Source of the DNA: an uncultured Haloferula sp.
GTDB taxonomy: Bacteria; Verrucomicrobiota; Verrucomicrobiia; Verrucomicrobiales; Akkermansiaceae
Direction of reading: 5' to 3'
Length of the DNA stretch: 64,000 bases
Assembly (NCBI GenBank): GCA_965652295.1
Contig: CBFGTS010000001.1
Location: 32,001 to 96,000, forward strand
Shown here: in pieces, positions 43,247 to 64,000 of the stretch
Layout of the letters: each line of letters starts with the position of its first letter
Numbering within the stretch: the stretch's first letter is position 1
Position numbers and translations under genes: made by a program
Notes under the pieces: model-generated
Seen by the model: only the letters and a program-made list of their open reading frames with translations
The model's database searches: none
Told to the model about the DNA's origin: nothing

Positions 43247-43314
43247 CAGAAACCGTGCCGGTACCGTGGGACGGCCGCCTCGACAGAGTGGGGATGCTTC
43301 TGAGACCTTTCCGC

Positions 43315-45858: not shown

Positions 45859-46489
45859 AGATCTCCGCACCCTCGCCATCGTCGAGGACGACAAGGACCT
45901 CCGCGAAGCCCTTGCCAAGCTGGTCGCCACGGCACCGAACTGGCAGGTGAAAGCCGCCTTTCCGAACGCCGAACGGGCCCTGCCGGCACTCATCGCGGAG
46001 CCGGTGGACCTGGTGCTCATGGACATCCAGCTCCCCGGTATGAGCGGGATCGAATGCGTCGCCCGGCTGCGTGAGGCGCATCCCTCCGTACGCGTGCTGA
46101 TGCTGACCGTTTACGATCACTCCGAGCGGGTCTTCGAGGCGCTGTCCGCCGGAGCATCAGGGTATCTGTTGAAACGGGACATTCCCTCCCGTCTCATCGG
46201 GTCGCTCAACGAGGCTTTCCAAGGCAGCACCCCGTTTTCCAGCGCGGTCGCCCGGCATATGCTGGAGCACTTCCTGGTCCGCAAGCCCACGCCCTCCGAA
46301 CCGGATTGGAACCTTACCCAGCGCGAGTCGGAGATCCTCAAGCTGTTGGTCCAAGGCGCGCTCTACAAAGAGATCGCCGACCAGCTCGGCATTGGCATCA
46401 CCACCGTCCGTTTTCATCTTCGCAACATCTATGACAAGTTGCACGTCAGCACCCGCACCGAGGCCGTGGTGAAATATCTCGGTCACTGA
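45851..46489 (+). CDS. NarL/LuxR family response regulator
   Basis: AIVEDD; LMDIQLPGMSG; GYLLK; LTQRE.EIL..YKEIA..NIYDKLHV. Confidence 0.96.
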   Translation: MPEDLRTLAIVEDDKDLREALAKLVATAPNWQVKAAFPNAERALPALIAEPVDLVLMDIQLPGMSGIECVARLREAHPSVRVLMLTVYDHSERVFEALSAGASGYLLKRDIPSRLIGSLNEAFQGSTPFSSAVARHMLEHFLVRKPTPSEPDWNLTQRESEILKLLVQGALYKEIADQLGIGITTVRFHLRNIYDKLHVSTRTEAVVKYLGH

Positions 46490-49110: not shown

Positions 49111-49136
49111 CCGGACCGGTTCAACGACAGGTATCA

Positions 49137-49165
49137 AGAGGTGGGGAGGAGCCCTCCCTACCTCT
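49137..49165. terminator. Hairpin between convergent genes, overlapping the atzF stop
   Basis: AGAGGTGGGGAGG-agc-CCTCCCTACCTCT; no clear U tail. Confidence 0.4.
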
Positions 49166-50882
49166 GTGCCAACCAAGCTTTCCAGCCGCCGAAGGAGGTG
49201 ATCTCTTCGGCTCCCTCCGTGGCGCGAGGTTCGGCGATGAATCCCGGAACCTCGCTGCCATCTTCCAGCTGTACTTTGCCGATCCCGAGAGGACCGGGGA
49301 TCTTGGAGACGAAATGGCCGAAGGCTTCGGGCGCGAGCGACCAGACTTCCACCTCAATCGCAGCACCGGAGGCGTCATCGCGCATCAGGGCCGGGCGCGG
49401 TGGGATGCCGTCGGCCGCGGGGATCGCGAACATCCGATAGATGGGTGCGGTGCGGGTTCGTGAAACGAGCCGGGCACCCCGATCGCTGAGCTGCCAGTGC
49501 AGGGGCAGGCCTTCCAGGTGGGCACCGCAGACGACCACGGGAATCCCGCCCTCGGCAGAACGAGTCCAAGTTTCACCGGTGAAACGGGAGGCCATTTCCA
49601 AGAGCGCCGCGTCCGTCCCTGCCGGTGCGGCCAGCGTCACGCCCCACGGCACCAGGCCGTCCCGAGCCCGTCCCGCGGGCACCGCCACCGCGCAGAGGTC
49701 GAGCAGGTTCATGAAATTCGTGTAGCGGCCGAGCGTGGCATTCGTTTGGTACGGATCTTCCAGTAATTGCTCCACCCGGTAGAGGCATGGCGTGGTTGGC
49801 AGAAGCAGCGCATCCACCGTTTCCCACACGGCTTCCGCCATCCGGGCGAAGGCTTTCAGCTGGTCCTGAGCCTTGAAAGTCGCCGCCGCGTTCCAGCCCT
49901 GCGAGGCTTCGAGGATCTTACGCGTCACCGGAAACACCGAGTCCGGCTTGGCGGAGACAAAATCACCCACCGCCGCCCAGCGCTCCGCCACCCACGGACC
50001 TTCGTAGAGCAGCTTGGCGGCCTCGACGAAAGGCGTGAGATCGATCTCCACCAGTTCGAATCCCAGCGCGGCCAGCCTTTCGGTTGCCGCCACGAAGAGC
50101 CCGGGTGTATCGGGATCGTCTGCAAAATCGAGCACCTTGGGCACGCCGATGCGCTTGCCCAGAGCTCCTTCCACCCCGATCCGGCGCGAGTAGGGATCCT
50201 CCGCGTCGAAGGTGCCCGCCACATTCATGACCTCCGCCGCGTCCGCCACGGTGTTGGCGAAGACCGAAACGCAGTCGAGCGAGCGACACGCAGGCACCAC
50301 GCCGCGGGTGCTGAGGAGGCCTTTCGAGGGCTTCCAGCCGATCAACTCCTGGAACGCCGCCGGCACACGGCCCGAGCCCGCGGTATCGGTGCCGAGTGAA
50401 AACACACACAGCCCGGCCGCCACTGAGGACGCACTGCCGGAGCTGGAGCCGCCGGGCAGCCAGCCGGGTGCGACGGCGTTCAGCGCCACGCCATACGGCG
50501 AGCGGGTGCCCACCAGGCCGGTGGCGAACTGGTCGAGGTTGCCCTTGCCGATGGGGATCGCGCCGGCCTCGCGCAAGCGCCGTACCACTCCGGCGTCCGC
50601 TTCTGCGACGTAGGTGTAATCCGCACAGCCCGCGGTCGTCGGCCAGCCGGCGACATCGATGTTGTCCTTCACCACGAACGGCACGCCCCACAAGGGCAGC
50701 GTCCGATCCATGGCCTCGACCTCCGCGGCCATCGCCTTGAGTTGTTCCTGCGACGGCAGGAAAATGAAGGTCGCCGGATTGTCCCACGCCGTGATGCGGC
50801 TGGAAACCTCCTCCAACACATCCACCACCGTAGCGCCATCCGCGAAGCGCGCCCTCACCCAGCTCAACGTCATCCTTTCCAT
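49158..50882 (-). CDS. atzF: Allophanate hydrolase
   Basis: PFVVKDNIDVAG; NLDQFATGLVGTRSPYG; GGSSSGS; LGTDTAGSGRVPA; C-terminal VVCGAHLEGLPL domain. Confidence 0.96.
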   Translation of the reverse strand: MERMTLSWVRARFADGATVVDVLEEVSSRITAWDNPATFIFLPSQEQLKAMAAEVEAMDRTLPLWGVPFVVKDNIDVAGWPTTAGCADYTYVAEADAGVVRRLREAGAIPIGKGNLDQFATGLVGTRSPYGVALNAVAPGWLPGGSSSGSASSVAAGLCVFSLGTDTAGSGRVPAAFQELIGWKPSKGLLSTRGVVPACRSLDCVSVFANTVADAAEVMNVAGTFDAEDPYSRRIGVEGALGKRIGVPKVLDFADDPDTPGLFVAATERLAALGFELVEIDLTPFVEAAKLLYEGPWVAERWAAVGDFVSAKPDSVFPVTRKILEASQGWNAAATFKAQDQLKAFARMAEAVWETVDALLLPTTPCLYRVEQLLEDPYQTNATLGRYTNFMNLLDLCAVAVPAGRARDGLVPWGVTLAAPAGTDAALLEMASRFTGETWTRSAEGGIPVVVCGAHLEGLPLHWQLSDRGARLVSRTRTAPIYRMFAIPAADGIPPRPALMRDDASGAAIEVEVWSLAPEAFGHFVSKIPGPLGIGKVQLEDGSEVPGFIAEPRATEGAEEITSFGGWKAWLAQR

Positions 50883-50887
50883 GGCTT

Positions 50888-53800
50888 TCAATCGGCAATC
50901 ATCAAATCTTCCACCGGCAATTCCCTCAGGATCGCCACGACTTGTCCGGCACGGACGCTGCCGCCTTCGGCAACGAGCAGCTCGATGACCTCGACGGATG
51001 TCTCCGTCTCCACCGGCATTTCCATCTTCATCGCTTCGAGAATCATCACGCCCTTGCCGGCTCCGAGTTGCCCGCCCGCCGCGGCGAGGACCTTCCACAC
51101 GCTGCCCGTCACCGGGCTTTCGAGCGCGATGCAGCCGTGGGGGATGACGAGTTCGTCCTCATCCACGACTTCGGTTTCCACCGGTGCATCCATCACCAAT
51201 CCGGCCGCTTCCCAGCGCTCGCGTTCTTCCTGAAAGGCCCGGCGCTGGTCGGTGCGGAAGGCATCGATCTCCTCCGCGTGGTCATCGAGAAAGCGTTCGT
51301 AGTCCGCGAAACGGAACACGGTTTCCTCGATCTTCAGCTTGTGTCGACCCAGGGGCACGTCCTCGCGGAAACGCAGGAGTTCCTCCGCGCTCACCGGGTA
51401 GAACCGCAGTTGGTCGAAGAATCGCAGCAGCCAGGGCTCGGAGAAATCCTCCGTTTTCCGCCAGCGGTTCCACACCGGGATGGTGCGTCCGGTGAACTGG
51501 TATCCGCCGGGGCCCTCCATGCCGTAGATGCACAGGTAGGCGCCGCCGATGCCGACCGCGTTCTCCGGCGTCCAAGTACGGGCCGGGTTGTACTTCGTCG
51601 TCACCAGCCGGTGCCGCGGATCGAGCGGCGTGGCGACCGGCGCGCCGAGGTAGACGTCGCCCAGGCCCATCACGAGATAGGAGGCGTCGAAGAAAATACG
51701 ATAAACGTCATCGATCGAGTCGAGCCCGTTGATGCGGCGGATGAACTCCAGGTTGCTCGGGCACCATGGTGCGTCGGGCCGCACGCTCTGCATGTACTTG
51801 CGGATGGCTTCCTGCGTGCTCGGGTCGTCCCAGCTCAGCGGCAGGTGGACGATCCGGGTCGGCACCTCGATTTCCGCCAGCGGCGGCAGCGACCGGAGGC
51901 CTTCATCAATGATCGCCCACAAGGCGTCGCGAGCGATCACCCGCGGGTCGAAGTGAACCTGCAACGACCGGATCCCCGGCGTGAGATCGACGATCCCGTC
52001 GATGCCCTTTTCCTTCAGCCACTCATAAACGACGTGGACCTTGAAACGCAGTTTCAGATCGAGGTGATGCGGGCCGAACTCGATCAGGAAATAGCGGTCG
52101 CCCGCACGGCGGACGACGACGGCGTCGTCCTGCTCGCCGAAGCTGGCGAGGATTGCCGATTGAAGATCGAGGATTGCCGGCTGAGGAAGAGGTAGAGCGT
52201 CGAGCGTTCCCGATAGATAGGCATCCAGAGCCTGGCGTTGGTTTTCCGCCCAGGATTCATCGACCGGGACGAAGGTGATCTTGTCTCCCGGGTGGAGCTG
52301 GCCGAGTTTCCACAGCTCGGCCTCGACCACCACGCAGGGGCAGACGAAGCCGCCGAGGCTCGGGCCGTCGGGGCCGAGAATGACGGGCATGTCTCCGGTG
52401 AAATCCACCGCTCCGATGGCGTAGGCATTGTCGTGGAGGTTCGAGGGGTGGAGTCCCGCCTCACCGCCGTCCTTGCGCGCCCACTTCGGCTTCGGACCGA
52501 TCAGGCGGACGCCCGTCCGGGCCGAGTTGTAGTGCACCTCCCAGCTGGTGTCGAAGAAGGTCCCGATGTCTTCCGGTGTGAAAAAGTCCGGGGCACCATG
52601 CGGCCCGTACAAGACCCCGATCCGCCACTCGTTGCTGATCGGAATCTCCTTCCCACAATCTTCCATCTCCAATCTCCAATCGGCAATTCCGAGCACGTCT
52701 CCCGGCAGCAAAGCCCGGCCGAACGGCCCTCCGAACCGGCCGAGCGTGAAGGTCGAGGCGCTGCCGAGATAGAGGGGCGACTCGATCCCGCCGCTGACCG
52801 CGAGGTAGCAGCGCATGCCCGCACCTTCGATGCGACCCACTTTGACGACATCGCCCGCGGCGACATCGAAAGCTCCCTCCACGGCCTCACCGTTCAGCGT
52901 CACCTTCGCCGCCGCGCCGACCACCGCGACCTTCACCGGCGTGTTGAAGCGCAGCGTCGGGCCGGTCATGGTGATCTCCAGCGCAGGCGCTCCTTCCGGA
53001 TTGCCGACGAGGCGGTTGGCGAGGCGGAACGACAGGGAATCGAACGGCCCGCAGGGCGGGACGCCGACCTCCCAATAGCCGGTGCGGCCGGGGAAGTCCT
53101 GGACTGTCGTCATGGTGCCCGGCGATTGCACATCGATGGTGCGCGGCCGGTAGTCGAAACCCGCCATGTCACGCATCGCCACGCCGCCCGTAATGTACGG
53201 CGTCCACCGTACGACCTGCCGCAGGTAGCGGAGGTTGGTTTCAATGCCGGAAATTCGCGACTCGTCGAGCGCCTGCGTCAGTTTCCTCACGGCCGAGTCA
53301 CGGTCGTCGGCATGGACCATCACCTTGCACAGCAGCGGATCGTAAAACGGGCTGACTTTGGTGCCGGGCCGCACCCAGCCGTCGCAGCGGGTCCATTGCG
53401 GGAAATCGGCCTCGGTTAGGAGTCCGGCGCTGGGGCGGAAATTCTGGTTCGGGTCTTCGGCGTAGACGCGGGCCTGGATCGCGCAGCCCTGCGGCGCCGG
53501 TACGACCCCGGGCATGACCCACTGTGGGTCGAGCGCCAGCCGGATCATCCATTCGACGAGATCGACGCCGGTGACCATCTCCGTGACCCCGTGCTCGACC
53601 TGAAGGCGGGTGTTCACTTCCAGAAAAAAGAAGTCGCTGCGATCGGCGTCGTAGATGAATTCAACCGTGCCGGCGGAGCGGTAGTTCACGCTTTCGCCGA
53701 GCTGCACCGCCGCGGCGTGAAGTGCCGCGCGGGTTTCGTCGGTGAGGCCCGGCGCGGGCGTTTCCTCGAAGACCTTCTGATTGCGGCGCTGCACCGAGCA

Positions 53801-54508
53801 ATCGCGCTCACCGAGCGCGAGCACACGGCCGTTGCCATCGCCGAAAATCTGCACCTCGACGTGGCGTCCGCGTTCGATGAAACGTTCGACGAACACCCCG
53901 CCCGAGCCGAAACTGCGTTCGCTGAGCCGCACCACGCTTTCGAACTCGCGGCGCAGCTCCTCCGGATCGCGGCAGACCTTCATGCCGATTCCGCCGCCGC
54001 CCGCCGTGCTTTTGAGCATGACCGGGAACCCGATCTCCGCCGCCGCCGTGACCGCCGCTTCGGCGTTCTCCAACAAGTCTGTCCCCGGAACCAGTGGCAC
54101 GCCCGCTTCACCTGCCAGACGACGTGCCTCATGCTTCAGTCCGAAGGCGATGATCTGTTCCGGCGTCGGCCCAAGCCACTTCACGCCGGCTTCCTCGCAC
54201 ATCCGGGCGAAGTCGGTGTTTTCGCTGAGCAGACCGTATCCAGGGAAGACCGCGGCCGCACCGGCTTCGCGGGCGATCTCGATCAGACGGTCCTTGAGAA
54301 GATAACTCTCCGAAACCGGCCCCGGCCCGAGTCGATGGGACTCGTCTGCGAGATCGACGTGGGGTGAGGCGCTATCGGGATCCGAGTAGACCGCCACGGC
54401 CTCCATGCCGAGAGCGTGTATCGTGCGGATGGCCCGAGCGGCGATCTCGCCGCGGTTGGCGATGAGGATCTTCGATTTTCGATTGATGATTGACGATTGA
54501 GACATCAT
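50888..54508 (-). CDS. uca: Urea/guanidine carboxylase (biotin-dependent)
   Basis: LIANRGEIA biotin carboxylase; FLEVNTRLQVEH; HPSNLHDNAY..DFTGD..DGPSLGGF; TKYNPARTWT; LEAMKME biotin site. Confidence 0.97.
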   Translation of the reverse strand: MMSQSSIINRKSKILIANRGEIAARAIRTIHALGMEAVAVYSDPDSASPHVDLADESHRLGPGPVSESYLLKDRLIEIAREAGAAAVFPGYGLLSENTDFARMCEEAGVKWLGPTPEQIIAFGLKHEARRLAGEAGVPLVPGTDLLENAEAAVTAAAEIGFPVMLKSTAGGGGIGMKVCRDPEELRREFESVVRLSERSFGSGGVFVERFIERGRHVEVQIFGDGNGRVLALGERDCSVQRRNQKVFEETPAPGLTDETRAALHAAAVQLGESVNYRSAGTVEFIYDADRSDFFFLEVNTRLQVEHGVTEMVTGVDLVEWMIRLALDPQWVMPGVVPAPQGCAIQARVYAEDPNQNFRPSAGLLTEADFPQWTRCDGWVRPGTKVSPFYDPLLCKVMVHADDRDSAVRKLTQALDESRISGIETNLRYLRQVVRWTPYITGGVAMRDMAGFDYRPRTIDVQSPGTMTTVQDFPGRTGYWEVGVPPCGPFDSLSFRLANRLVGNPEGAPALEITMTGPTLRFNTPVKVAVVGAAAKVTLNGEAVEGAFDVAAGDVVKVGRIEGAGMRCYLAVSGGIESPLYLGSASTFTLGRFGGPFGRALLPGDVLGIADWRLEMEDCGKEIPISNEWRIGVLYGPHGAPDFFTPEDIGTFFDTSWEVHYNSARTGVRLIGPKPKWARKDGGEAGLHPSNLHDNAYAIGAVDFTGDMPVILGPDGPSLGGFVCPCVVVEAELWKLGQLHPGDKITFVPVDESWAENQRQALDAYLSGTLDALPLPQPAILDLQSAILASFGEQDDAVVVRRAGDRYFLIEFGPHHLDLKLRFKVHVVYEWLKEKGIDGIVDLTPGIRSLQVHFDPRVIARDALWAIIDEGLRSLPPLAEIEVPTRIVHLPLSWDDPSTQEAIRKYMQSVRPDAPWCPSNLEFIRRINGLDSIDDVYRIFFDASYLVMGLGDVYLGAPVATPLDPRHRLVTTKYNPARTWTPENAVGIGGAYLCIYGMEGPGGYQFTGRTIPVWNRWRKTEDFSEPWLLRFFDQLRFYPVSAEELLRFREDVPLGRHKLKIEETVFRFADYERFLDDHAEEIDAFRTDQRRAFQEERERWEAAGLVMDAPVETEVVDEDELVIPHGCIALESPVTGSVWKVLAAAGGQLGAGKGVMILEAMKMEMPVETETSVEVIELLVAEGGSVRAGQVVAILRELPVEDLMIAD

Positions 54509-54898
54509 GGCGCTTTGCGCGTTATTCAGAGTTCTTCTTTGATGCGACCATGATGGCGCAGATTTCGTCGGCTTCCTGCAGTAGCGGTTGGACTCGTTCG
54601 GCAGGCAGGAGTTCGGCTTCGATGATCATTTCCAGCCAATAGGCAGACTCGTCGGCTTCTTCGATCACGATCCCAAGCTTGGCTTGAAACTCGGCGGTGG
54701 ATTGTCCGCGACAGGCAGCACGATAGTTCGCTCCCACCGACGACCCGGAGCGAGCGAGTTGCATCGCGATGGTTTTTCCGACGTAGGACTTGGGCAATGC
54801 CTCGACCACGCGAAATGCCCGCAGCCCGAACTGCTTGGTCCGCTTCTTGAGTTCTTCCGGTGTCATGTCTTCCAATCGTCAATCTTCAATCGAAAATC
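54474..54898. repeat. 26-bp heptamer-built inverted repeats enclosing the four-helix-bundle gene
   Basis: 54474-54499 GATTTTCGATTGATGATTGACGATTG versus reverse complement of 54873-54898 GATTTTCGATTGAAGATTGACGATTG (25/26). Confidence 0.92.
54522..54866 (-). CDS. Four-helix-bundle protein (23S rRNA intervening-sequence protein/bAvd-like family)
   Basis: ELKKRTKQFGLR..LPK..QLARSGSSVGANYRAACR.QSTAEF.AKLGIV.EEADES.YWLE..EADEI family signature. Confidence 0.93.
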   Translation of the reverse strand: MTPEELKKRTKQFGLRAFRVVEALPKSYVGKTIAMQLARSGSSVGANYRAACRGQSTAEFQAKLGIVIEEADESAYWLEMIIEAELLPAERVQPLLQEADEICAIMVASKKNSE

Positions 54899-55518
54899 AG
54901 AGCTTCCACCGGTGTCGGGTTCCAGCCGTTGCAGGGGTTGTTCAATTGTGGACAGTTCGAGATCAGGCACACGACGTCCATCGCCGCTTTCATTTCCACA
55001 TATCTTCCCGGAGCCGAGATTCCGTCGGCGAAGGAAAGCTGGCCGTCGGGGGTGACGGGGACGTTCATGAAGAGGTTGATGTTGCAGGTGAGGTCGCGCT
55101 TGGTCAGCCCGCCGCGCCATTCCTGTGCGCCGCGGATGAAGCTGTCGCGGCAGGCGTGCATGCATTCCTTGTCGTGGGCGTAGCGCATGGTGTTCGACTC
55201 GCGCGAGCAGGCACCGCCAAGCGTGTCGTGGCGGCCGCAGGTGTCGGCGGTGATCTCGAGCAGCACGTGGCCCTCGGTGCTCATCAGTCGGGTGCCGGTG
55301 GTGAGGTAGAGCGCCTGCTGGGCCTGGATGGTGCGGTCGGCGCTGTAGCGGTCGGTCGGGTCGGCGGCGCTGTAGAAAAGCGTGTCCGCGGCCTGGTTGC
55401 CTTCGAGGTCGAGGATGCGCAGCGTCTGTCCGGCCTTGATTTCATGCGTCCACCAATCGCCGGCGGGGATGATTTCCCGGTAAACGGCGGCGGCGGGATC
55501 GAGCGGGCTCTCTTTCAT
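54886..55518 (-). CDS. cgdB: Urea carboxylase-associated protein 2 (DUF1989), carboxyguanidine deiminase subunit
   Basis: [56 protein letters not shown]. Confidence 0.9.
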
Positions 55519-56234
55519 CAGAAACGAAGGGCGTGATAGGTTTCGTTGTTTTCCCAGGCTCGGAGGTTTTCCGGCCGGACGGTGAGGCTCGGGTCCCCGG
55601 CGGCGGGTGCCTCGCCGGAGAGGACCTCCAGCTTCACCCGGCGCGGATGGTAGGTGGGATCGGGATCGAGCGGGTGCTGGCAGGTGTTGAGGACGACCAA
55701 GGTGTCGATCTCGAAACGCAGCTCGATGTGATCGCCGGGCTTCGAGTGATCCGGGACGAAGGACAATGCGCCCTCGTCATTGCTGACGACCTTGCTGAAC
55801 CAGTTGAGGTTCGGCACGAGGTCCTTCTTGCCGAGGCCCCACTTGGCGAGTTCGATCAGGAAACAGTCGCGCGCGTTGCGATACCAGTCGTTGCGGGCGT
55901 CCTGGAAACTACGTTCGCCGTACTTCGACGTCACCAGCGCGGCATCCGAGTGGCCGCAGACCGTATCGTGCCAGCCGACGCTGTCAGACACGATCGAGGC
56001 GAGCAGCCGGCCCATGTCCGAGTGCAGGCAATAGGGGGCGCGGAGGTAGAAAATGTGCTGGCCCTTGAGTGTGTCCGGCATGTTGTAGCGCTCGTGCCGC
56101 TCCAGCGCGTTGTAGAGCAGCATCCCGACGTTCGCGCCGCCTTCGAGGTCGGTCAGACGCAGGCGTTTGCCACGGGAGATCACGGCCGACCACATGCCGG
56201 CGCCTTCGAGGGTTCGTTCGAGGAGGGTCTTCAT
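55518..56234 (-). CDS. cgdA: Urea carboxylase-associated protein 1 (DUF1989), carboxyguanidine deiminase subunit
   Basis: [50 protein letters not shown]. Confidence 0.9.
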
Positions 56235-56267
56235 TTCTTTCAATCGGCAATCTCCAATCGTGAATCT

Positions 56268-56726
56268 TCAGTCCATCATCCGCTTCGCGTGGAGTGGCGG
56301 AATGAGGTGCGGGGTGAGGGTGAGCTGGGCGGTTTTGACGCCCTTGCAGGTGACGAGTTTGTTGGCGATGTCGCGCAGGGTTTTCGCCGGGCCCTGCATG
56401 AGGATGACCTCGAGCATGTGGTCGTCCTCCAGCAGCACGTGCTGGGAGGAAATGACCTCGGCGATGTGCTCGCGGAAGATGCGCGAGAGGTCGCGCAGGA
56501 GCGTGCTTTTCGACTCGTCGTAAACCAGCGTCAGCGTGCCGGCCATGACCTCGGTGCCGATGCGGCTGAGGTGCTGGGCGGCGTGCTGGTGGATCATTTC
56601 GGCGACCGCCTGCGAGCGGCTGTCGAAACCGCGGGCGACCACCAGCCGGTCGAGGAACTGGTAGGTTTCCTCGGGCATCGACACGGTCACCCGCTTCACT
56701 CCTTCGTTGGTCTCGTCGTTCGGCAT
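56268..56726 (-). CDS. NikR-like CopG/ribbon-helix-helix transcriptional regulator
   Basis: KRVTVSMP..LD..V..RGF.SRSQA (RHH); GTLTLVYD and LEVILMQG (NikR C-terminal ACT-like domain). Confidence 0.88.
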   Translation of the reverse strand: MPNDETNEGVKRVTVSMPEETYQFLDRLVVARGFDSRSQAVAEMIHQHAAQHLSRIGTEVMAGTLTLVYDESKSTLLRDLSRIFREHIAEVISSQHVLLEDDHMLEVILMQGPAKTLRDIANKLVTCKGVKTAQLTLTPHLIPPLHAKRMMD

Positions 56727-56756
56727 CGCCGACCGCTTACAGCACATCGGGGGCCA

Positions 56757-56784
56757 GTATGAAGAAATTTTTCATTCGTCACAC
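56757..56784. promoter_or_regulatory. NikR-type operator upstream of the carboxylase operon
   Basis: GTATGA-N16-TCACAC, one mismatch from the E. coli NikR operator GTATGA-N16-TCATAC; AT-rich spacer; 30 bp before the regulator ATG. Confidence 0.8.
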
Positions 56785-56924
56785 TTTGTGCAGGGAAAAA
56801 GAAGCGTGGGACCCCGGGGCAAATCATGAAAGACCGTAGAAATTCGCCAAAACCCGGGCCGCGGAGCTTCCTGACACCGGCAAGCGGTTCCACGTCCGGT
56901 TTCAGGAGTGAGAGGGCGGTGTCG

Positions 56925-58115
56925 TCATCTCTTGGCTGCGGTTCTGAGGCTCTCGACGCGTGCGCGGTAGGCGAGCCCGAACCGGTCCTGATGGGTGAGG
57001 ACGTTCCATTTCATGGCGTCGTCCTTGGATTCCGACTCGGAAAGCCGAAGCCATTCGCGCTCCTGTCGAGGACGCAGCACCTCGGAGCGACCGACGATGA
57101 CGCGCACCTGCTTGTCCGGAGCCGGGGTCACGTTCAGCGGAAGGATGGCTTCGGTCCGGGATTCCGGCAGAATCCAGAACACCCGCAGCCCCGGAGCTTC
57201 GAAGTAGCTGTGCCACCAGGTTTGCACCATCGCCTCGGCCTCGGACGGGAGAAGTCCTTGGGCCGTGAGGTGGGAGGTCAGTTCTTGATAGAGTTCGGTA
57301 TCGAAGCCGGTTGGGCGTGAATCGAGCTTCGACTGTGGAATTTCAGCGATGGCATTTTCTCCGAGCGGAGCGTCGTGCTGGAACCAGCGGGTGGTGCCGT
57401 CCGCCTCTCTTTCATAAACCAGAAGATAGGGAATCGCGCCTCCAGTCCGGTTCTCAAGCGTGAGCGTTTCGGAATTGTCGATGGTTGTGTGGAGTCCGGG
57501 CACGAAATGTCCGACGCCCCGGTAGAAGAGGAATCCCTCCGTGGTTCCGTCTTCGGACTGGACGACATTGGCTTCGGGGATCCGCGCACGGGTCCATTGC
57601 AGCAAGTCATCGGGTTTGAAAAGAACGGTCTGACGGCTGGCTTTGGAGTTCAGCACCTCGATATCCCACTCGATGGAACCGGTGTAGGGCTTGGAGAAAT
57701 CGAGAAGCTCCAAAGAGAGAGGGTCTTCGGAAGGAGGTGGCGCGAATGTTTCTCCACCGCTTCTTTCCGGATACCACTGGCTGATCGTGCCACCGTTGAA
57801 GCCGACTTTCACATGGGCGCGAAAGCCTTCCTCTGAGTGAAAATAAATGACCGGCGTCTCCATTTTCACCGTGACGCTCCGGACCGGACGGGCTGTCTTT
57901 TTCATGAGGAACACGCCTGGGTTCGGCAGAGGCGCGAACCCGGGGTGATGGCGGACATAGGCGGGCAGCGCTTCTTCTTCCCGTTCGAGACCGGAGAGGA
58001 GCGTGCCGTCGGAACCCGACACAGTGGTGAAGGTGCCCCACTCGTGGAGGTCGTAGGCTGACGATGCGGACAAGAGGGTGAATGTCGCGATGCTGGCGAG
58101 ATGGATCGTTTTCAT
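56925..58115 (-). CDS. Exported conserved hypothetical protein (HEWGTFT / ETPVIYF family)
   Basis: Signal peptide; LHEWGTFTTV; VKMETPVIYF; FLFYRGVG; GL..SEA.AM..TW. Confidence 0.75.
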   Translation of the reverse strand: MKTIHLASIATFTLLSASSAYDLHEWGTFTTVSGSDGTLLSGLEREEEALPAYVRHHPGFAPLPNPGVFLMKKTARPVRSVTVKMETPVIYFHSEEGFRAHVKVGFNGGTISQWYPERSGGETFAPPPSEDPLSLELLDFSKPYTGSIEWDIEVLNSKASRQTVLFKPDDLLQWTRARIPEANVVQSEDGTTEGFLFYRGVGHFVPGLHTTIDNSETLTLENRTGGAIPYLLVYEREADGTTRWFQHDAPLGENAIAEIPQSKLDSRPTGFDTELYQELTSHLTAQGLLPSEAEAMVQTWWHSYFEAPGLRVFWILPESRTEAILPLNVTPAPDKQVRVIVGRSEVLRPRQEREWLRLSESESKDDAMKWNVLTHQDRFGLAYRARVESLRTAAKR

Positions 58116-58169
58116 ATCACTCGCAAGGATGAGGCCGGGCTTCGGCCCGGACAAGATCGCGGCGGCTGC

Positions 58170-58212
58170 TTTACGGGGAATTTACCGGGTCCCGAATTTA
58201 CCATGCCTTTAC
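58170..58212. promoter_or_regulatory. Two TTTAC-N6-TTTAC direct-repeat pairs, putative OmpR-family binding sites
   Basis: TTTAC at 58170, 58181, 58197 and 58208 (11-bp period within each pair) in the divergent intergenic region. Confidence 0.6.
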
Positions 58213-58247
58213 GGACGTCAGAGGTGCGGGCGGGTAAGGTTCTCCTC

Positions 58248-58775
58248 ATGAAGATCTACATTGCCATGGCCGCTCTCCTCTTCACGTGTGTCGTGGTCGG
58301 GGAGGAGAACGGGCGCATTGACTATCAGGCATTCCTGAAGCTGACCCGTGAGGTGGAGCCCTACCGGCAGAGCCGGCGGATCAGCGAGGACGAGTTCCTG
58401 AGGATGGCGGCGGAGGAGGGGACGGTGGTTCTCGATACCCGGAGCAAGGAGAAATACGACCTCCGACATGTGAAGGGCGCGGTGCACCTCAATTTTTCCG
58501 ATTTCACCGACCAAGCCCTTGCCAGGGTGATTCCATCCAAGGACACGCGCATTCTGATCTACTGCAACAACAACTTCATCGGCGATTCACGGTCGATGTT
58601 CGGGAAAATGGCTCCGTTGGCGTTGAATATTCCGACCTTCATCAATCTCTATGGCTACGGATACCGCAATGTCTACGAGCTGCAGCCTGCTCTCCCGCTA
58701 TTCACCACGAAGATTCCCTTCGAGGGCACGATGATCTTGCCGGGGGGGCGACAGGAGGATGAGATGAGCAGGTGA
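58248..58775 (+). CDS. Exported rhodanese-like domain protein
   Basis: VVLDTRS; HVKGAVHL; RILIYCNNNF. Confidence 0.85.
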   Translation: MKIYIAMAALLFTCVVVGEENGRIDYQAFLKLTREVEPYRQSRRISEDEFLRMAAEEGTVVLDTRSKEKYDLRHVKGAVHLNFSDFTDQALARVIPSKDTRILIYCNNNFIGDSRSMFGKMAPLALNIPTFINLYGYGYRNVYELQPALPLFTTKIPFEGTMILPGGRQEDEMSR

Positions 58776-59458
58776 TGGAAGCGCCCCTGCTGGTCATCGA
58801 GGACGATGCCGCCGTGCGGCAGGGCGTGGTCGACGCTCTGGAGTACGCCGGGTATCGTACCCTGCAGGCTGCCGACGGGATTGCGGGTCTGGAGCTGGCG
58901 TTGCGGGCCAATTACCGTTTGTTGCTGCTCGATCTCGTGATGCCTGGCCGGGATGGGTTGGAACTCTTGGAGGAACTCAAGCGCAGCCGCCCCGGGCAGG
59001 CGGTGATCATTCTTTCCGCCAAGGGCGGGGAGGACGACCGGGTGCGGGGTTTGCAGCTGGGTGCGGATGACTACGTGATGAAGCCGTTCAGCGTCAGAGA
59101 GCTGCTGGCCCGCGTGGAAGCGGTGCTTCGCCGCACCTGCGAACGCGGCACTCCTTCCGATGTGCGGGCGTTCCCTGGCGGGCGGGTTGATTTCTCCCGG
59201 GGTGCGATCGATTTCGACGACGGCGGGTGCGAGGAACTCACGGAGCGCGAAGCTGGGCTTTTGCGCTACCTGTATGCCTCCGAGAACCGGGTCGTTTCCC
59301 GCGCCGAGATCCTGCATCACGTCTGGGGTCTCGATCCCGAACGCACCGAGACGCGAACGCTCGACATGCACATCATGCACCTGCGCACCAAGTTACGGGA
59401 CCGCGGCCAATCTTTCCTGGTGACCGTGCGAGGGAAAGGATGGAGGCTGACGACATGA
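58772..59458 (+). CDS. OmpR/PhoB family response regulator
   Basis: LVIEDD; LLDLVMPG; GADDYVMKPF; TRTLDMHIMHLRTKL; TVRGKGW. Confidence 0.96.
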   Translation: MMEAPLLVIEDDAAVRQGVVDALEYAGYRTLQAADGIAGLELALRANYRLLLLDLVMPGRDGLELLEELKRSRPGQAVIILSAKGGEDDRVRGLQLGADDYVMKPFSVRELLARVEAVLRRTCERGTPSDVRAFPGGRVDFSRGAIDFDDGGCEELTEREAGLLRYLYASENRVVSRAEILHHVWGLDPERTETRTLDMHIMHLRTKLRDRGQSFLVTVRGKGWRLTT

Positions 59459-61107
59459 GCGGCCGACATCGATGGGTGCTGTGGACCGCGTTGCCGGCCT
59501 GCGCGATGCTGATCCTGATGTCGATGGGCTGGCTGACTCACAGCGTGCTGCGGGCAGAGTCAGAGCGCGCCCGGACAGAGGCGAGGGCGCGACTGGAAGA
59601 GAAGATCCGCCTTTCGCTATGGCGGATGGATACTCTGGCGGCATCTGTGGCCATCGAGGAGAACCAGCGCGTGGTCCTGCCGGGCACCCCGGCTCCGGAG
59701 AACCCGCTGGTCAGGACCCGCTTCCACGTCGGCCCCGACGGTCGGGCTGCTCCGGTCGGTGGCGCCGTGGAAGAAGAACTGGCGCAGATAGACGACCTGC
59801 TCGACCGGCAACACGTCGAAACGACCCGCTTCGCCTTCATGTGCGCCGCGTTGGCAGTGGATAACCAATGGCTTTCCAACACGCACGCCGCCGCTCAGCC
59901 CAAGGCGGAGATCACCGATGGAGCCGATCAAATTTCGCAATCTTCTTGGAATCTCAACGAGCGGGCAAGCCGAGGGAAGGTGGTCAATCGGGCTGTGATG
60001 AAAGCGGGTCTTGAGCAGCGACTCCCGGAAATGACCGGCATGACACCGCTGGCATCCGGCTCCGGTTCGTTTCAACCCACCTGGCTTGGCGATGAGCCGT
60101 TCTTGCTACGGGTGGTCCGGGGGACGTCGGGGATCGCGGGCATCGAAGGAGTGTGGCTCAAGAAGGAGGCTTTCAGCAGGCTTTTGCTCGCAGAGGTCAG
60201 CGAGCTGCTTCCTCACGCCCGCCTCGTTCCTTCGACTCCGGGCTCGGCAGGCGCGGAAGCGCTTGAGCTCGCTTCATTTCCCTGGCGGCTCATTCCCGGC
60301 GAGTCGGCGGCGGCCGATCCGAGGCTGCGCGAGCCGGTGGTGCGTTCGCTTGTTGCGGGCTGGCTGGCGGTGTTGGTCGCGTTGGCGGCCGGGGTTGCGA
60401 TGATTCTCGCGATCGTAAGGCTCAGCGAACGCCGCGCCTCCTTCGTCTCCGCCGTGACCCACGAACTGCGCACGCCGCTGACCACCTTCCGCCTGTACTC
60501 CGGCATGCTCGCGGCTGGCATGGTAAAAAGCGAAGACAAGCGCAGGAGCTATTTTGAAACGATGCATCGTGAGTCCGACCGGCTCTCCCATCTCGTGGAG
60601 AACGTTCTGGCTTTTTCCCGCATCGAGGGCCGCAAGAAGACTCCGGATCTGGTCGCTCTTTCGATCCGGGATTTTCTCAAGTCGTTGCGGGAACGCTTTG
60701 AGGTCCGGTTGGAGAGCGTAGGGTTGGCTCTGGAGATTGAGGTGCAAGGGGATCCTGTGGCGGAAGCGGATGCGGCATCGGTGGAGCACATTCTTTTCAA
60801 CCTTATCGACAACGCAGCAAAGTATGCCGTTGGAGGCGAGCCCGCGGTGGTAACCATCCTTGGGCGTTCTGAGAGAGGGCGGGTGGTCATTGAAGTGATC
60901 GATCACGGTCCGGGCATACCGCTGCGGGAGCGCCGGCGTATTTTCCGGCCCTTTCACAAGTCTGCGGCAGAAGCGGCGCACACGAAGCCCGGCGTCGGGC
61001 TCGGCCTCAATCTGTCCCGGCGGCTCGCCCGCGAACTTGGTGGAGATCTGAAATGTTGCGACGGAAAGGGAGCCAGGTTCAGGCTGACGCTTCCGGGCTG
61101 TTGCTGA
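59455..61107 (+). CDS. Sensor histidine kinase (HisKA)
   Basis: Two TM helices; AVTHELRTPLT; NLIDNAAKY; DHGPGI; GVGLGL. Confidence 0.95.
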   Translation: MSGRHRWVLWTALPACAMLILMSMGWLTHSVLRAESERARTEARARLEEKIRLSLWRMDTLAASVAIEENQRVVLPGTPAPENPLVRTRFHVGPDGRAAPVGGAVEEELAQIDDLLDRQHVETTRFAFMCAALAVDNQWLSNTHAAAQPKAEITDGADQISQSSWNLNERASRGKVVNRAVMKAGLEQRLPEMTGMTPLASGSGSFQPTWLGDEPFLLRVVRGTSGIAGIEGVWLKKEAFSRLLLAEVSELLPHARLVPSTPGSAGAEALELASFPWRLIPGESAAADPRLREPVVRSLVAGWLAVLVALAAGVAMILAIVRLSERRASFVSAVTHELRTPLTTFRLYSGMLAAGMVKSEDKRRSYFETMHRESDRLSHLVENVLAFSRIEGRKKTPDLVALSIRDFLKSLRERFEVRLESVGLALEIEVQGDPVAEADAASVEHILFNLIDNAAKYAVGGEPAVVTILGRSERGRVVIEVIDHGPGIPLRERRRIFRPFHKSAAEAAHTKPGVGLGLNLSRRLARELGGDLKCCDGKGARFRLTLPGCC

Positions 61108-61165: not shown

Positions 61166-64000
61166 TCATTGCTCCGCCAGCGCGAGGCGGACGCGGTAGA
61201 ACTGGAACATCTGTCCGTCCGGGACGGGAGGCAGGGTGATGCGGTAGAGATCGCCGCCGAGATGACTGAGGACGGCACCGACGATTTCCTCGAAGCTGCC
61301 GGGGCTCATGTCGGGCGAGCCTTCGACGATGAAATCCATCTGGTCGAAATACTCCTCGGGCCAGATGAAATCGATCGTGAACTCGCCGGGATCGGCCGGT
61401 GCGATGGCGAGGCCGGGGAGCGACAGGGCGGCGGGCGTGCCTGCGGGGTCGGAGCCGCCCCGGGGATCGCTGCCGGCCAGGTAGTGTTCGAGCAGGGTGA
61501 AGGCCGAGTCCGCCGGAACGGAGAAGGGATCGTGGCCGGTGGTGCCGAAGAAAAAGCGCTCCCATTCGTCGTCGAGCAGGTTGGCGTCCTGATCGCGCGC
61601 GCTGGCGGCGGGCAGCGAGTTGTAAACGATGGCCGTGACCTCCATGGCGGGGAAACCGGTCGGCGAGGTGACGTCGGTGAAGCCGGTCACGGACATGGTG
61701 GTGCCTTCGAGGATACCTAGACCTTGTTCGAACAAGAAGGGCTCGCCGGTGGGACGGAGGAGGGCGACGGAGGTGGTGCCGAGCGGGCGGTAGGCCACGC
61801 CCGGAGCGGCGGAACCCTGCGGCAGCACCTCGATGGCCCAGGTGTCCACCGGGCGGAAGGCGTTGGCGGAAAGCGCGCGGATGGCGGCGACGGCGGTGCC
61901 GGCGTTGTTGAGGGTGGTGGCGGGGACGGTGCCGGCGTAGTCGGCGGGCAGGCTGCCGGTGGCCAGCCATTCGCGCAGGGCATCGAGCGGATGAACCATT
62001 GCCGGGTTTGCCGCGAAGCTGGCGATGTGGCGGTTGTAGACCCCGTTGGCGAGGGTGCGGAGGGCGGTGGCATTGGTGTTGCCGGCATGGACCCCGGTTT
62101 CCGCCAGGTCGAGCAGCTCGGAGAAATCGAAGCCGGCCGCGGCGAGGGTGGCGACCATGGTGCGGTCGAGCGGCGTGCGCGGGGCGTCCTGCGAACGCCA
62201 CGGCAGGGCGGTGAAGCCGGTCAGCGCCGGGGCGGGATCTCCGAGCAGGTCGGCGGCGGCGAGCTGGTCGTAGAGCATCGCCTCGCAAAGTACGGCGATC
62301 ATCGTATGAACCGGACGGATGTCGGTGAGTTCGTCGATCGGTGACCAGCCGGCGTAGGCGGTTTGTGCGGCAGCGATCCAGTTGGCGGCGTCGCCGGCGA
62401 GGTTGGTGCCGGTGGCGGTGAAGGCGATGGACGGGCCGGACGGGACCGGAATGTCCACGAAGCGGACGACCTCGCGGCCCTGCGGGCTGTTGGAGAGACC
62501 GACGCCGAAGAAGGTGTCGGTGGAGAGTGAGGCCCACTCGGTCTGTGCCGGGCTGGAGTTCGACACCGGCTCGGCCGCGCGCTGGCTGCCGAGGGTGGGG
62601 TGGACCACGCTCTCCACGTCGTCGCTGGCCAGCAGCGCGCCGGCGATGTCGCGAGCGTGGATCATCTCACCGGCGGAAATCCGTGCGGTGGTCTGGTGGG
62701 TGAAGGCGGCGGCGAGCCATTGGACGCCTTCGCCCTGGGGGACCGGGTTGCGGGGCGAGGGGACGTCGGTGTCGTCGCCGGGTTTGGTGCCTTCGAGCAG
62801 TTCCTCGAGGTCGGAAGCGCCGTCGCCGTCGGTATCCGCCCCACCGAAGGGATCGAGGCCAGCCTGCATTTCGACGAAATCGGGCACTCCGTCGGAGTCC
62901 GAGTCGATGTCGGCGAGGTTGGCCGCAGGGATCGTCCACTGGCGGCCGGTGATCGGGCCGGGCGTGCCGGTGGCGTTGTCCCTGAGGTGGAAATACCAGG
63001 TGGAGGAATAGGCGACGGAGAGCGAGCCGGGCCATTCCTTCCACGCGCTGGAGCTACTAGATTCGCGGTAGTAGAGCGTGTGCCGGGCGGTGTCGTAGAG
63101 GGCGCTGACCTCGACGGTGGAAGGCGACGCGCCGGACGGCGGGCTGATGGTAAGGGAAGGATTGAGGATCTGGTCGTTGGCGCGCAGGGCGGAGATGCTG
63201 AGCTCCGGTTGGTGTTGGTTACTGAGCAGGTAGTTCGCCCCGCCGGGAGCGGAAAACGAGCGGTTCGAGGGCGAGCCGAGGCCGGTGGAGGCATTGACGT
63301 AGGTTTCCCCGGTGATCGAGGCGGGGAAGGGGGCGGCGGTGGAGCCGGTGGTCCAGTCGGGCAGGATCTCCAGGCCGAGCAGGGCGGCGGTGTCGGTGAG
63401 GAAGGGCTCGCTGTCGAAGTAGAAGAGCGTCGCGAAGTCGGTGCCGACGTCGAGCAGGTCGGGGATCGAATCCGGCTCCGAGGCCTTCCACTCCGAGCCG
63501 TCCCAGAGGTGGTTGGTGAAGACGGTCGATGCCCCCTTGTCGAGGCCATCGAGTTGGACGATGCCGTGATTCTTGACGGGAACCAGACCGTGGAGGCGGA
63601 GCTTTTCGTCCACCGGCGAAAAGGCATTGAGCAGCTTGAGGGTTTTTCCGCCATCGACCCGCGCCCACACGCCCTCGCTGCCGTCGGCGGAGATGGCGAG
63701 GAAGCCGTCGGGTGCGCCGGGGAGTTCGACGCGCTGGATCGAGCCGATGCCGCCGGAGAGGTTGAGCAGTGGCTCGCCGGTCAGGGAGAGGGTGGCACCG
63801 GCCCCGATGCCGCCGTTCAGGGTGTAGAGCTTGAGTTCTTTTTCGCCGAACTGCCAGCAGACCACCAGTGTGCGGCCATCGGCACCGGGCACGGACGAGG
63901 CGAGGCGCCATTCGCCGGGCAGGCTGTCCTGGACGTCGAGGATCGCGGTGGCGCCGGAGCGGTAGGCGAGGAAAACATCGGTCGAGGCCCCGACGATGCG
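61166..64000 (-). CDS. Large secreted/surface protein with DxDxDG repeats (5' end outside the window)
   Basis: Frame stays open to the window edge; DSDSDGVPDFVE, DTDGDGASDLEE, DQDANLLDDEWE repeats; C-terminal FQFYRVRL motif. Confidence 0.8.
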   Translation of the reverse strand, partial: RIVGASTDVFLAYRSGATAILDVQDSLPGEWRLASSVPGADGRTLVVCWQFGEKELKLYTLNGGIGAGATLSLTGEPLLNLSGGIGSIQRVELPGAPDGFLAISADGSEGVWARVDGGKTLKLLNAFSPVDEKLRLHGLVPVKNHGIVQLDGLDKGASTVFTNHLWDGSEWKASEPDSIPDLLDVGTDFATLFYFDSEPFLTDTAALLGLEILPDWTTGSTAAPFPASITGETYVNASTGLGSPSNRSFSAPGGANYLLSNQHQPELSISALRANDQILNPSLTISPPSGASPSTVEVSALYDTARHTLYYRESSSSSAWKEWPGSLSVAYSSTWYFHLRDNATGTPGPITGRQWTIPAANLADIDSDSDGVPDFVEMQAGLDPFGGADTDGDGASDLEELLEGTKPGDDTDVPSPRNPVPQGEGVQWLAAAFTHQTTARISAGEMIHARDIAGALLASDDVESVVHPTLGSQRAAEPVSNSSPAQTEWASLSTDTFFGVGLSNSPQGREVVRFVDIPVPSGPSIAFTATGTNLAGDAANWIAAAQTAYAGWSPIDELTDIRPVHTMIAVLCEAMLYDQLAAADLLGDPAPALTGFTALPWRSQDAPRTPLDRTMVATLAAAGFDFSELLDLAETGVHAGNTNATALRTLANGVYNRHIASFAANPAMVHPLDALREWLATGSLPADYAGTVPATTLNNAGTAVAAIRALSANAFRPVDTWAIEVLPQGSAAPGVAYRPLGTTSVALLRPTGEPFLFEQGLGILEGTTMSVTGFTDVTSPTGFPAMEVTAIVYNSLPAASARDQDANLLDDEWERFFFGTTGHDPFSVPADSAFTLLEHYLAGSDPRGGSDPAGTPAALSLPGLAIAPADPGEFTIDFIWPEEYFDQMDFIVEGSPDMSPGSFEEIVGAVLSHLGGDLYRITLPPVPDGQMFQFYRVRLALAEQ

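Follow-up and report, generated by a model that had tools for sequence, protein, structure and literature searches.

Which signal does a regulator of the NikR family obey when it has lost most of its nickel ligands and stands at the head of an operon for the degradation of guanidine? This question is raised by a locus of an uncultured Haloferula sp. (Verrucomicrobiota, Akkermansiaceae), in which a gene for a NikR-like protein of 152 aa (positions 56268-56726, minus strand) is the first of six closely packed genes, the last of which encodes an allophanate hydrolase. The window, i.e. the whole stretch that was analyzed, comprises 64,000 nt (contig CBFGTS010000001.1, 32,001-96,000) of a genome of 4.37 Mb that is 98% complete, and positions without further label are those of the window. 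It is only in recent years that guanidine has come to be seen as a widespread bacterial nitrogen source and stressor. The relevant passages of PMC11410670 describe its degradation by a guanidine carboxylase, a carboxyguanidine deiminase that is heteromeric (PF09347, CgdA/CgdB) and an allophanate hydrolase. According to a 2025 review (PMC12186494), no guanidine receptors other than riboswitches are known if transporters and enzymes are set aside, and guanidine-binding transcription factors still await discovery.

A preliminary description of the locus had proposed an autoregulatory, nickel-blind regulator of the NikR fold for this operon. The gene order in relatives, the operators, the co-variation of protein and DNA and a split in the nickel-ligand residues support this proposal, and the predicted regulon was found to extend beyond that operon to at least a second one outside the window. 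With moderate confidence we suggest that the protein is a nickel-blind repressor dedicated to the uptake and degradation of guanidine, that it acts at two sigma-54-type promoters and that guanidine or a close guanidino compound releases it from them.

The NikR-like protein and its former nickel site

The protein consists of an N-terminal ribbon-helix-helix (RHH), a C-terminal NikR_C (ACT-like) domain and a PPLH tail at the C-terminus. The Pfam match to NikR_C (4.5e-22) spans the full profile and that to RHH_1 (5e-05) lies above its cut-off; the protein scored below the cut-off in all five NCBIfam NikR models (5/5). A monomer predicted with AlphaFold2 had a predicted local distance difference test (pLDDT) score of 80.2, with a beta-alpha-beta-beta-alpha-beta C-domain at about 90. 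Residues 139-152 were of low confidence, so the model does not place the tail. The best Foldseek matches of the model were all NikR, with template modelling (TM) scores of 0.85-0.93 and root mean square deviations of 1.0-1.8 Å for the C-domain. The tetramerisation domain of the NikR family is present, and a tetramer is predicted. The start codon is best placed at M8 (ATG 56726-56724), 21 nt inside the listed open reading frame (ORF; 56268-56747), because M8 is the only start common to all relatives.

The high-affinity nickel ligands of NikR are given in PMC7055735 as H87, H89 and C95 together with H76 from the neighbouring subunit. Alignment to E. coli NikR (1q5v) with phmmer placed R92, H103, L105 and M111 (numbering of the 159-aa ORF) opposite H76, H87, H89 and C95, which reproduced the earlier manual alignment: three of the four ligands of the square-planar site are replaced. 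The same residues were read out at the ligand positions when NikR of P. horikoshii (2bj1) was used, and E30 of the second cation site of NikR is Q in the NikR-like protein. The loss of ligands thus stood. The term paralogue did not hold for this genome, where a genome-wide profile search found the gene to be the sole one with NikR_C; a canonical and a guanidine-type copy do occur together in another genome (G438; L187, L189).

Among 97 non-identical proteins encoded next to guanidine genes, the position of C95 was never Cys (0/97), that of H89 was Q, L, M or F in 72 and His in 25, and that of H76 was R in 59. A tail of the PP[LIV]H type was found in 95 of these 97 proteins as compared to none of 27 canonical ones, and the guanidine-linked proteins have the signature Q-G-P where canonical proteins have R/K-G-x. 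Many of them are labelled 'nickel-responsive' in public annotation. The residues at the former nickel site differ among the subfamilies (RHLx, RHQR, YHLT, HHHY, RQMN, in the order H76, H87, H89, C95).

Gene order in relatives

In a family sample of 151 genomes, 32 had a homologue (this genome, G000, included). Thirty loci were fetched, and in 25 of them the regulator was directly followed by UAAP1/UAAP2, the cgdA- and cgdB-like genes. The other five comprised two canonical proteins with all four ligands (HHHC) located elsewhere, one regulator before the carboxylase gene, one at a contig edge and one that is unexplained (L025). From a species-level genome collection with 390 relatives, the best 80 were examined and UAAP1 was directly downstream in 76. 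Across the 73 closest of these 80 loci, protein identity was 72-95% and the frames were intact; the nearest record found was from Haloferula luteola, with a NikR-like protein that is 95% identical. A metagenome scan was seeded with a sister subfamily (about 50% identical, RHQR) from a search of 1.84 billion proteins and gave 484 relatives. Of 80 loci examined, UAAP genes were directly downstream in 69, and nine of the remaining 11 had less than 340 nt of downstream sequence.

The phylum sample separated the two kinds of protein. Among 401 Verrucomicrobiota genomes, 135 had a NikR-like gene, and 58 of 60 fetched loci gave a tblastn match. HHHC was found in none of the 32 loci that lie in a guanidine cluster and in 25 of the 26 that lie elsewhere, and no canonical HHHC protein was encoded next to cgdAB (0/27). 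These canonical Verrucomicrobiota NikRs (L178-L209, L030, L031), of the same phylum and protein family, lack the tail, and several have a gene for an ATP-binding cassette (ABC) ATPase 2-4 kb downstream. A quick maximum-likelihood analysis (IQ-TREE) placed the 27 canonical proteins in one group (SH-aLRT 87), sister to a guanidine-linked HHHY subgroup (L169-L177, one family of the same class), the tails of which end in PPLL or PPLR. The tree, whose root is not known, is compatible with a single split between guanidine-linked and canonical proteins, and the HHHY subgroup may be an evolutionary intermediate.

Operators and recognition strand

The palindrome GTATGA-N16-TCACAC was found exactly where the preliminary description had placed it, at 56757-56784 (plus strand; GTATGA 56757-56762, TCACAC 56779-56784). 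On the gene strand it reads GTGTGA-N16-TCATAC, with its first base 58 nt before the regulator start codon, and it differs by one base from the perfect palindrome GTATGA-N16-TCATAC. The latter is also the enterobacterial NikR consensus GTATGAT-N13/14-ATCATAC, as that site is stated in the text of PMC545781. A second operator, a perfect GTATGA-N16-TCATAC, lies at C1:143051-143078 of the genome, 54 kb outside the window and 28 nt before the gene for an NMT1-type ABC substrate-binding protein (SBP). The pattern GTRTGA-N16-TCAYAC occurs only at these two sites in the 4.37-Mb genome, as compared to 0.41 expected from base composition, and both are directly upstream of guanidine-linked operons. Both show the 6-bp inverted half-sites, 16 bp apart, of NikR-family operators and are predicted binding sites.

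Phylogenetic footprinting, proposed earlier as a check, bore the operator out. Of the 76 related loci that had 120 nt or more of sequence before the regulator gene, 73 showed it there with at most two substitutions. It started at -53 to -66, nearly always at -53 to -60, with three outliers at -156, -32 and -33. In an information profile of 77 non-identical promoter regions the half-site positions reached 1.1-2.0 bits, the spacer was A/T-rich, and the flank before the operator was close to 0 bits (0-0.6 bits for the 15 nt preceding it). At the SBP gene, 17 of the closest 18 loci had the operator. Palindromes from other genera and classes keep the 6-N16-6 geometry, and their letters become GTAATA or GTATTA.

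These letters change together with the protein. In E. coli NikR the first, third and fifth residues of the recognition strand (R3, T5, T7) contact bases, and the strand K-R-V-T-V-S-M of the NikR-like protein aligns with Q-R-V-T-I-T-L of 1q5v. For the co-variation analysis 106 non-redundant loci with a palindrome were used; a further 109 had none within 250 nt, and in many of these the regulator gene is internal to the operon. Proteins with an R-x-T strand were associated with GT[AG]TGA (123 of 128 half-sites) and those with R-x-S with GTA[AT]TA (73 of 84), i.e. the change of half-site accompanies a shift from R-x-T-x-S to R-x-S-x-S. The S class includes some canonical NikRs. This is the pattern that direct recognition of the half-site by the strand predicts.

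Genes of the two operons

All six genes of the first operon are on the minus strand. The gene after the regulator (55518-56243) encodes a CgdA-like carboxyguanidine deiminase subunit of the DUF1989/UAAP1 type (Pfam DUF1989 6.5e-59; TIGR03425 314.9 bits, above the cut-off); it begins 24-33 nt past the regulator stop codon, probably with the ATG at 56234. It is followed by the gene for the CgdB-like UAAP2 subunit (54886-55518; DUF1989 1.8e-68; TIGR03424 323.4 bits, above the cut-off). The next gene encodes a four-helix bundle of the 23S_rRNA_IVP family (54522-54875; Pfam 4.8e-15, TIGR02436). By tblastn it occupies that position in only four of 80 related loci (L092, L103, L106, L126), and it is probably a passenger that looks mobile and was inserted between the cgdB-like and carboxylase genes.

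The biotin-dependent carboxylase (50888-54508; 1206 aa; TIGR02712, 1776 bits) is of the guanidine type. According to Palatinszky et al. (PMC11410670), guanidine carboxylases are told from urea carboxylases by Asp at the positions aligned to 1330 and 1584 of the K. lactis enzyme. In alignment to 3va7 and 5i8i, with the offset taken from both chains, D702 was opposite N1330 and D951 opposite D1584; by these published residues the predicted enzyme is guanidine-specific. Because these Asp residues and the published pathway gene set match, 'guanidine operon' is a fair name. The allophanate hydrolase gene as listed (49158-51098; Pfam Amidase and AH_C; NF006043 759 bits, TIGR02713 713 bits) overlaps the carboxylase gene. 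Its true start is probably near 50880-50900, because the family match begins only at residue 73. The matches to TIGR03425, TIGR03424, TIGR02713 and NF006043 were all above their cut-offs, and the activities of the deiminase subunits and of the hydrolase are predicted from them. To our knowledge, none of the enzyme families of the operon needs nickel.

The second operator precedes a transporter operon (C1:143107-149983; L041:7108-13983) with genes for the SBP, a permease, an ATPase, a type III glutamine synthetase, and creatininase-family, GFA and FGE-sulfatase-like proteins. The best NCBIfam match of the SBP, below its cut-off, was a 'putative urea ABC transporter' family tied to urea carboxylase. 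Within the genus, 11 of 15 genomes have the SBP gene, and they are the same 11 that have the regulator. Many relatives carry it immediately upstream of the regulator on one contig, either co-directionally or divergently. In one relative (L092:1-6000) the operon is extended by a 349-aa ORF without a Pfam match and a Rieske/Ring_hydroxyl_A oxygenase gene just before the regulator. The oxygenase and the formaldehyde-handling GFA protein suggest that a methylated guanidino compound is N-demethylated and in this way supplies the pathway with guanidine.

Elsewhere in the window, three minus-strand ORFs of 409, 908 and 999 aa (56925-58154, 61166-63892 and 43027-46026) had no Pfam match. Only in this genome does the 409-aa ORF lie next to the regulator, upstream and in the same direction; the upstream neighbours in relatives vary. 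At a distance of 1.3 kb from the operon, the opposite strand carries a rhodanese-domain gene with genes for an OmpR-type response regulator and a histidine kinase behind it (58101-61107), for which no connection to the regulator or the operon was seen.

Promoter type

Beyond the operator, only GGC, eight variable bases and TGCT are conserved in the 77 promoter regions. GGY-N8-YGC was found in 73 of them, with a variable spacer and with columns that were partly selected for, and 66 of 76 related loci have it 29-31 nt past the first base of the operator. In the window this element (56741-56756, minus strand) has TGGC at -24 (56756-56753), N8 and TGCT at -12 (56744-56741), and reads TGGCCC-N5-GTGCT, as compared to the sigma-54 consensus TGGCAC-N5-TTGCW. 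From the end of the operator to the -24 element the distance is 1-2 nt in relatives and 1 nt here. GG-N10-GC beside the operator looks like a -24/-12 promoter of the sigma-54 type; transcription would then start near 56730 and leave a 5' untranslated region of about 4 nt. At the SBP gene, whose promoter also looks sigma-54-like, the second operator begins 8 nt past the -12 GC, and the start site predicted there is covered by it. The operators of the closest SBP loci are preceded by TTGG[CT]A[CT]G-N4-[CGT]TGCT, and many more distant relatives have a near-consensus TGGCAC-N5-TTGCT at that promoter.

The genome carries rpoN and three strong genes for bacterial enhancer-binding proteins, and strict sigma-54 consensus sites occur six times, as compared to 1-3 times in shuffled sequence. 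One of them (TGGCAC-N5-TTGCT) is 42 nt upstream of a P-II gene (C19:46727-47116, L293); others precede ORFs that by eye, and on no more than their first 30 residues, look LysR-like and ClpX-like. A metatranscriptome (X19, 7% of sampled words) gave four short contig pieces on 54500-57500, three of them 90-95% alike and partly unaligned, with nothing usable on expression or start site.

Search for riboswitches and earlier reports

Operons of this kind are often controlled by guanidine riboswitches, and none had been recognised here in the preliminary description. Rfam scans agreed: at gathering score there were no matches in the 64-kb window, no guanidine-related family matched at E<=10 within 48500-58500, Guanidine-I (RF00442) had no match in the whole genome, and the transporter locus together with ten related clusters (11 loci, 148 kb) gave no riboswitch match. 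No ykkC-type aptamer was found at the regulator gene, where the predicted intergenic leader measures just a few nt. Full-text literature searches gave no NikR-like or RHH regulator of guanidine- or urea-carboxylase genes, with subscription journals and supplements mostly outside their coverage and an earlier mention possible. Three papers in which the topics occur together (PMC10927577, PMC12153308, PMC2667541) were checked and were unrelated.

Discussion

How might the NikR-like protein act? In the mechanism that we propose, a tetramer would bind the 6-N16-6 inverted repeats at both promoters. At its own operon it would keep the sigma-54 holoenzyme off the promoter and thereby control its own synthesis, and at the ABC-transporter operon it would cover the start site. 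We suggest repression because the site abuts the -24 element at one promoter and covers +1 at the other. The protein would be on the DNA without effector and come off once its remodelled C-terminal domain has bound a small molecule. This effector is most likely guanidinium or a close guanidino compound, as judged from the regulon and because the same gene sets are under guanidine riboswitches elsewhere. The sigma-54 promoters and an enhancer-binding protein would supply control by nitrogen limitation and the NikR-like protein control by substrate, so that it would do the job of the guanidine riboswitches of other bacteria.

We also put forward, tentatively, a more specific version, which we consider somewhat less likely than not. 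Here the clade would be the first protein receptor for free guanidine, with guanidinium held in the former nickel pocket at the subunit interface and closed in by the PP[LIV]H tail. Members in which H76 has become Arg would hold their own guanidinium group in the old cation site and keep the DNA-binding shape until free guanidinium displaces it. On this view a metal sensor would have turned into a sensor of an organic cation with its operator left almost unaltered. Together with sigma-54 this would give AND-logic, i.e. expression upon nitrogen limitation and guanidine.

Some of the evidence weighs against the proposed repressor. Related genomes are not independent samples, and all support comes from sequence comparison. 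Two loci (L025, L291) have downstream sequence but no cgdA in it, in a third (L127) the regulator is followed by an SBP gene, and in one lineage (L018/L143) it directly precedes the carboxylase gene with no cgdAB between, the usual operator and GG-N10-GC being present. Canonical NikR binds DNA in its ligand-bound form, and the proposed inducer logic is the reverse, drawn only from the catabolic regulon. The predicted sigma-54 start would leave a leader of 1-5 nt across relatives, which is unusual, also in combination with the GTG starts of the regulator gene in several of them. No conserved NtrC-type enhancer site was seen upstream when relatives were inspected by eye. In five of them (L046, L048, L049, L052, L053) a G+C-rich hairpin with a T-run, resembling a terminator of the upstream gene, lies directly before the sigma-54-like SBP promoter, so that an enhancer site would not fit close by; the activator may have its site elsewhere or need none on the DNA.

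The unusually short leader speaks for an alternative in which the operon has a sigma-70 promoter, with the CATACT hexamer noted earlier as its -10 element, overlapped by the operator as at E. coli nikA, and with GGC-N8-TGCT as a second protein site or a leader element. CATACT is indeed present on the minus strand, and the right half-site with its following T is conserved in many relatives. The hexamer is, however, an operator half-site plus one base, most likely nothing but the half-site, and it becomes CACACT or CACATC in relatives whose half-sites are TCACAC or TCACAT. A lax sigma-70 consensus scan of 56200-57200 gave no promoter-like site. The conserved element is GG-N10-GC, in which GG and GC are invariant at exactly 10 nt while the spacer varies, and at the SBP gene the near-consensus sigma-54 element lies upstream of the operator, where the half-site cannot act as a -10. 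We therefore regard the sigma-70 promoter as unlikely. Less credible still is that another factor binds the palindrome, with the NikR-like protein acting elsewhere or being a decaying remnant; this hardly fits the identity and intact frames of the closest relatives, a geometry that is that of NikR tetramers, half-sites that change along with the recognition strand, and two strict genome sites that are both at linked operons.

What the proposed repressor senses is the point on which the other alternatives differ. The protein could still be a sensor of nickel or another cation with a remodelled site, which in the presence of ample metal would shut down the guanidine/urea carboxylase route, a route that is costly in ATP and independent of nickel (metal sparing). 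The NikR fold is retained and H87 is kept in 88 of the 97 guanidine-linked proteins. The HHHY subgroup, which makes up nine of the 32 guanidine-linked loci of the phylum sample, keeps three His with Tyr in place of Cys, and both observations would suit a metal site of another kind. The genome also has a urease alpha gene and no other NikR, and H110, C134 and the tail His, kept among close relatives, are possible alternative ligands. These three are, however, lost in distant guanidine-linked members, Cys at the position of C95 is absent throughout and H89 is mostly lost. In G438 a canonical HHHC NikR is present alongside the guanidine type. A search of the 98%-complete genome with PF00491 gave no gene of the arginase family (nickel guanidinase), so there would be no nickel-dependent guanidine route to spare, and a regulon with a dedicated uptake system is typical of substrate induction. 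Metal sensing thus appears very unlikely to us. An effector other than free guanidine, with the same regulator, operators and repression, is a somewhat more serious alternative, even if we do not expect it. Candidates are carboxyguanidine, allophanate, urea, methylguanidine, creatinine, creatine or a metabolite that reports nitrogen status, for instance an amino acid at the ACT-like domain, since such domains commonly bind amino acids. The creatininase-family, GFA and FGE-sulfatase-like genes of the transporter operon and the Rieske oxygenase gene imply that the true inducer could be a substituted guanidine; the type III glutamine synthetase gene and the wide variation of the former nickel-site residues between subfamilies, odd for one fixed small ligand, also speak for an effector other than free guanidine. 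On the other hand, invariable linkage to the regulator is seen only for cgdAB and the genes of the guanidine-type carboxylase and the hydrolase, promoters that depend on sigma-54 would already take care of nitrogen status, and the same gene sets elsewhere answer to guanidine itself via riboswitches, as far as the relevant passages of PMC11410670 and PMC12186494 describe them.

In comparison to known systems, the fold and the DNA code are those of NikR, and the sensing site, the tail, and the predicted regulon and promoter type are new. By its ligand residues the protein does not belong to NikR in the sense of a nickel sensor. E. coli NikR, the nickel-responsive repressor of nikABCDE, has the same two-domain fold, and the enterobacterial consensus shares the operator geometry, with half-sites nearly identical to those found here. 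The recognition strand is R-V-T-I-T in 1q5v and R-V-T-V-S in the NikR-like protein, and both proteins head the operon that they control or, in the present case, would control. The differences are the three replaced nickel ligands, the change of E30 to Q, the PP[LIV]H tail and the Q-G-P signature. The targets are nickel uptake in E. coli and guanidine uptake and catabolism here, and co-repression stands against the expected induction by a ligand at promoters that look sigma-54 dependent. The Guanidine-I, -II and -III riboswitches (ykkC, mini-ykkC, ykkC-III) control the same gene sets (ABC transporter, cgdAB, carboxylase, hydrolase), according to portions of PMC11410670 and PMC12186494. The presumed signal is the same, and a cis-acting leader RNA there contrasts with the protein repressor at promoters that is proposed here. 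NikR of H. pylori is likewise a NikR-family protein connected to a nitrogen-releasing catabolism (urease) and to more than one target promoter, but it keeps the nickel ligands and is nickel dependent, as stated in parts of PMC4464171 and PMC5385501, whereas the NikR-like protein does not keep them.

The clade is found in many soil and water bacteria and offers a candidate regulator with defined 28-bp operators. It is a strong candidate for the first guanidine-responsive switch that is a protein and not an RNA. If this is true, the scaffold of NikR, the textbook nickel sensor, can be retuned to another signal with its DNA code unchanged, and the 'nickel-responsive' labels of these proteins would mislead predictions of regulons and metal homeostasis. 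Biosensors, too, could make good use of a protein that senses guanidine and whose operator is known.

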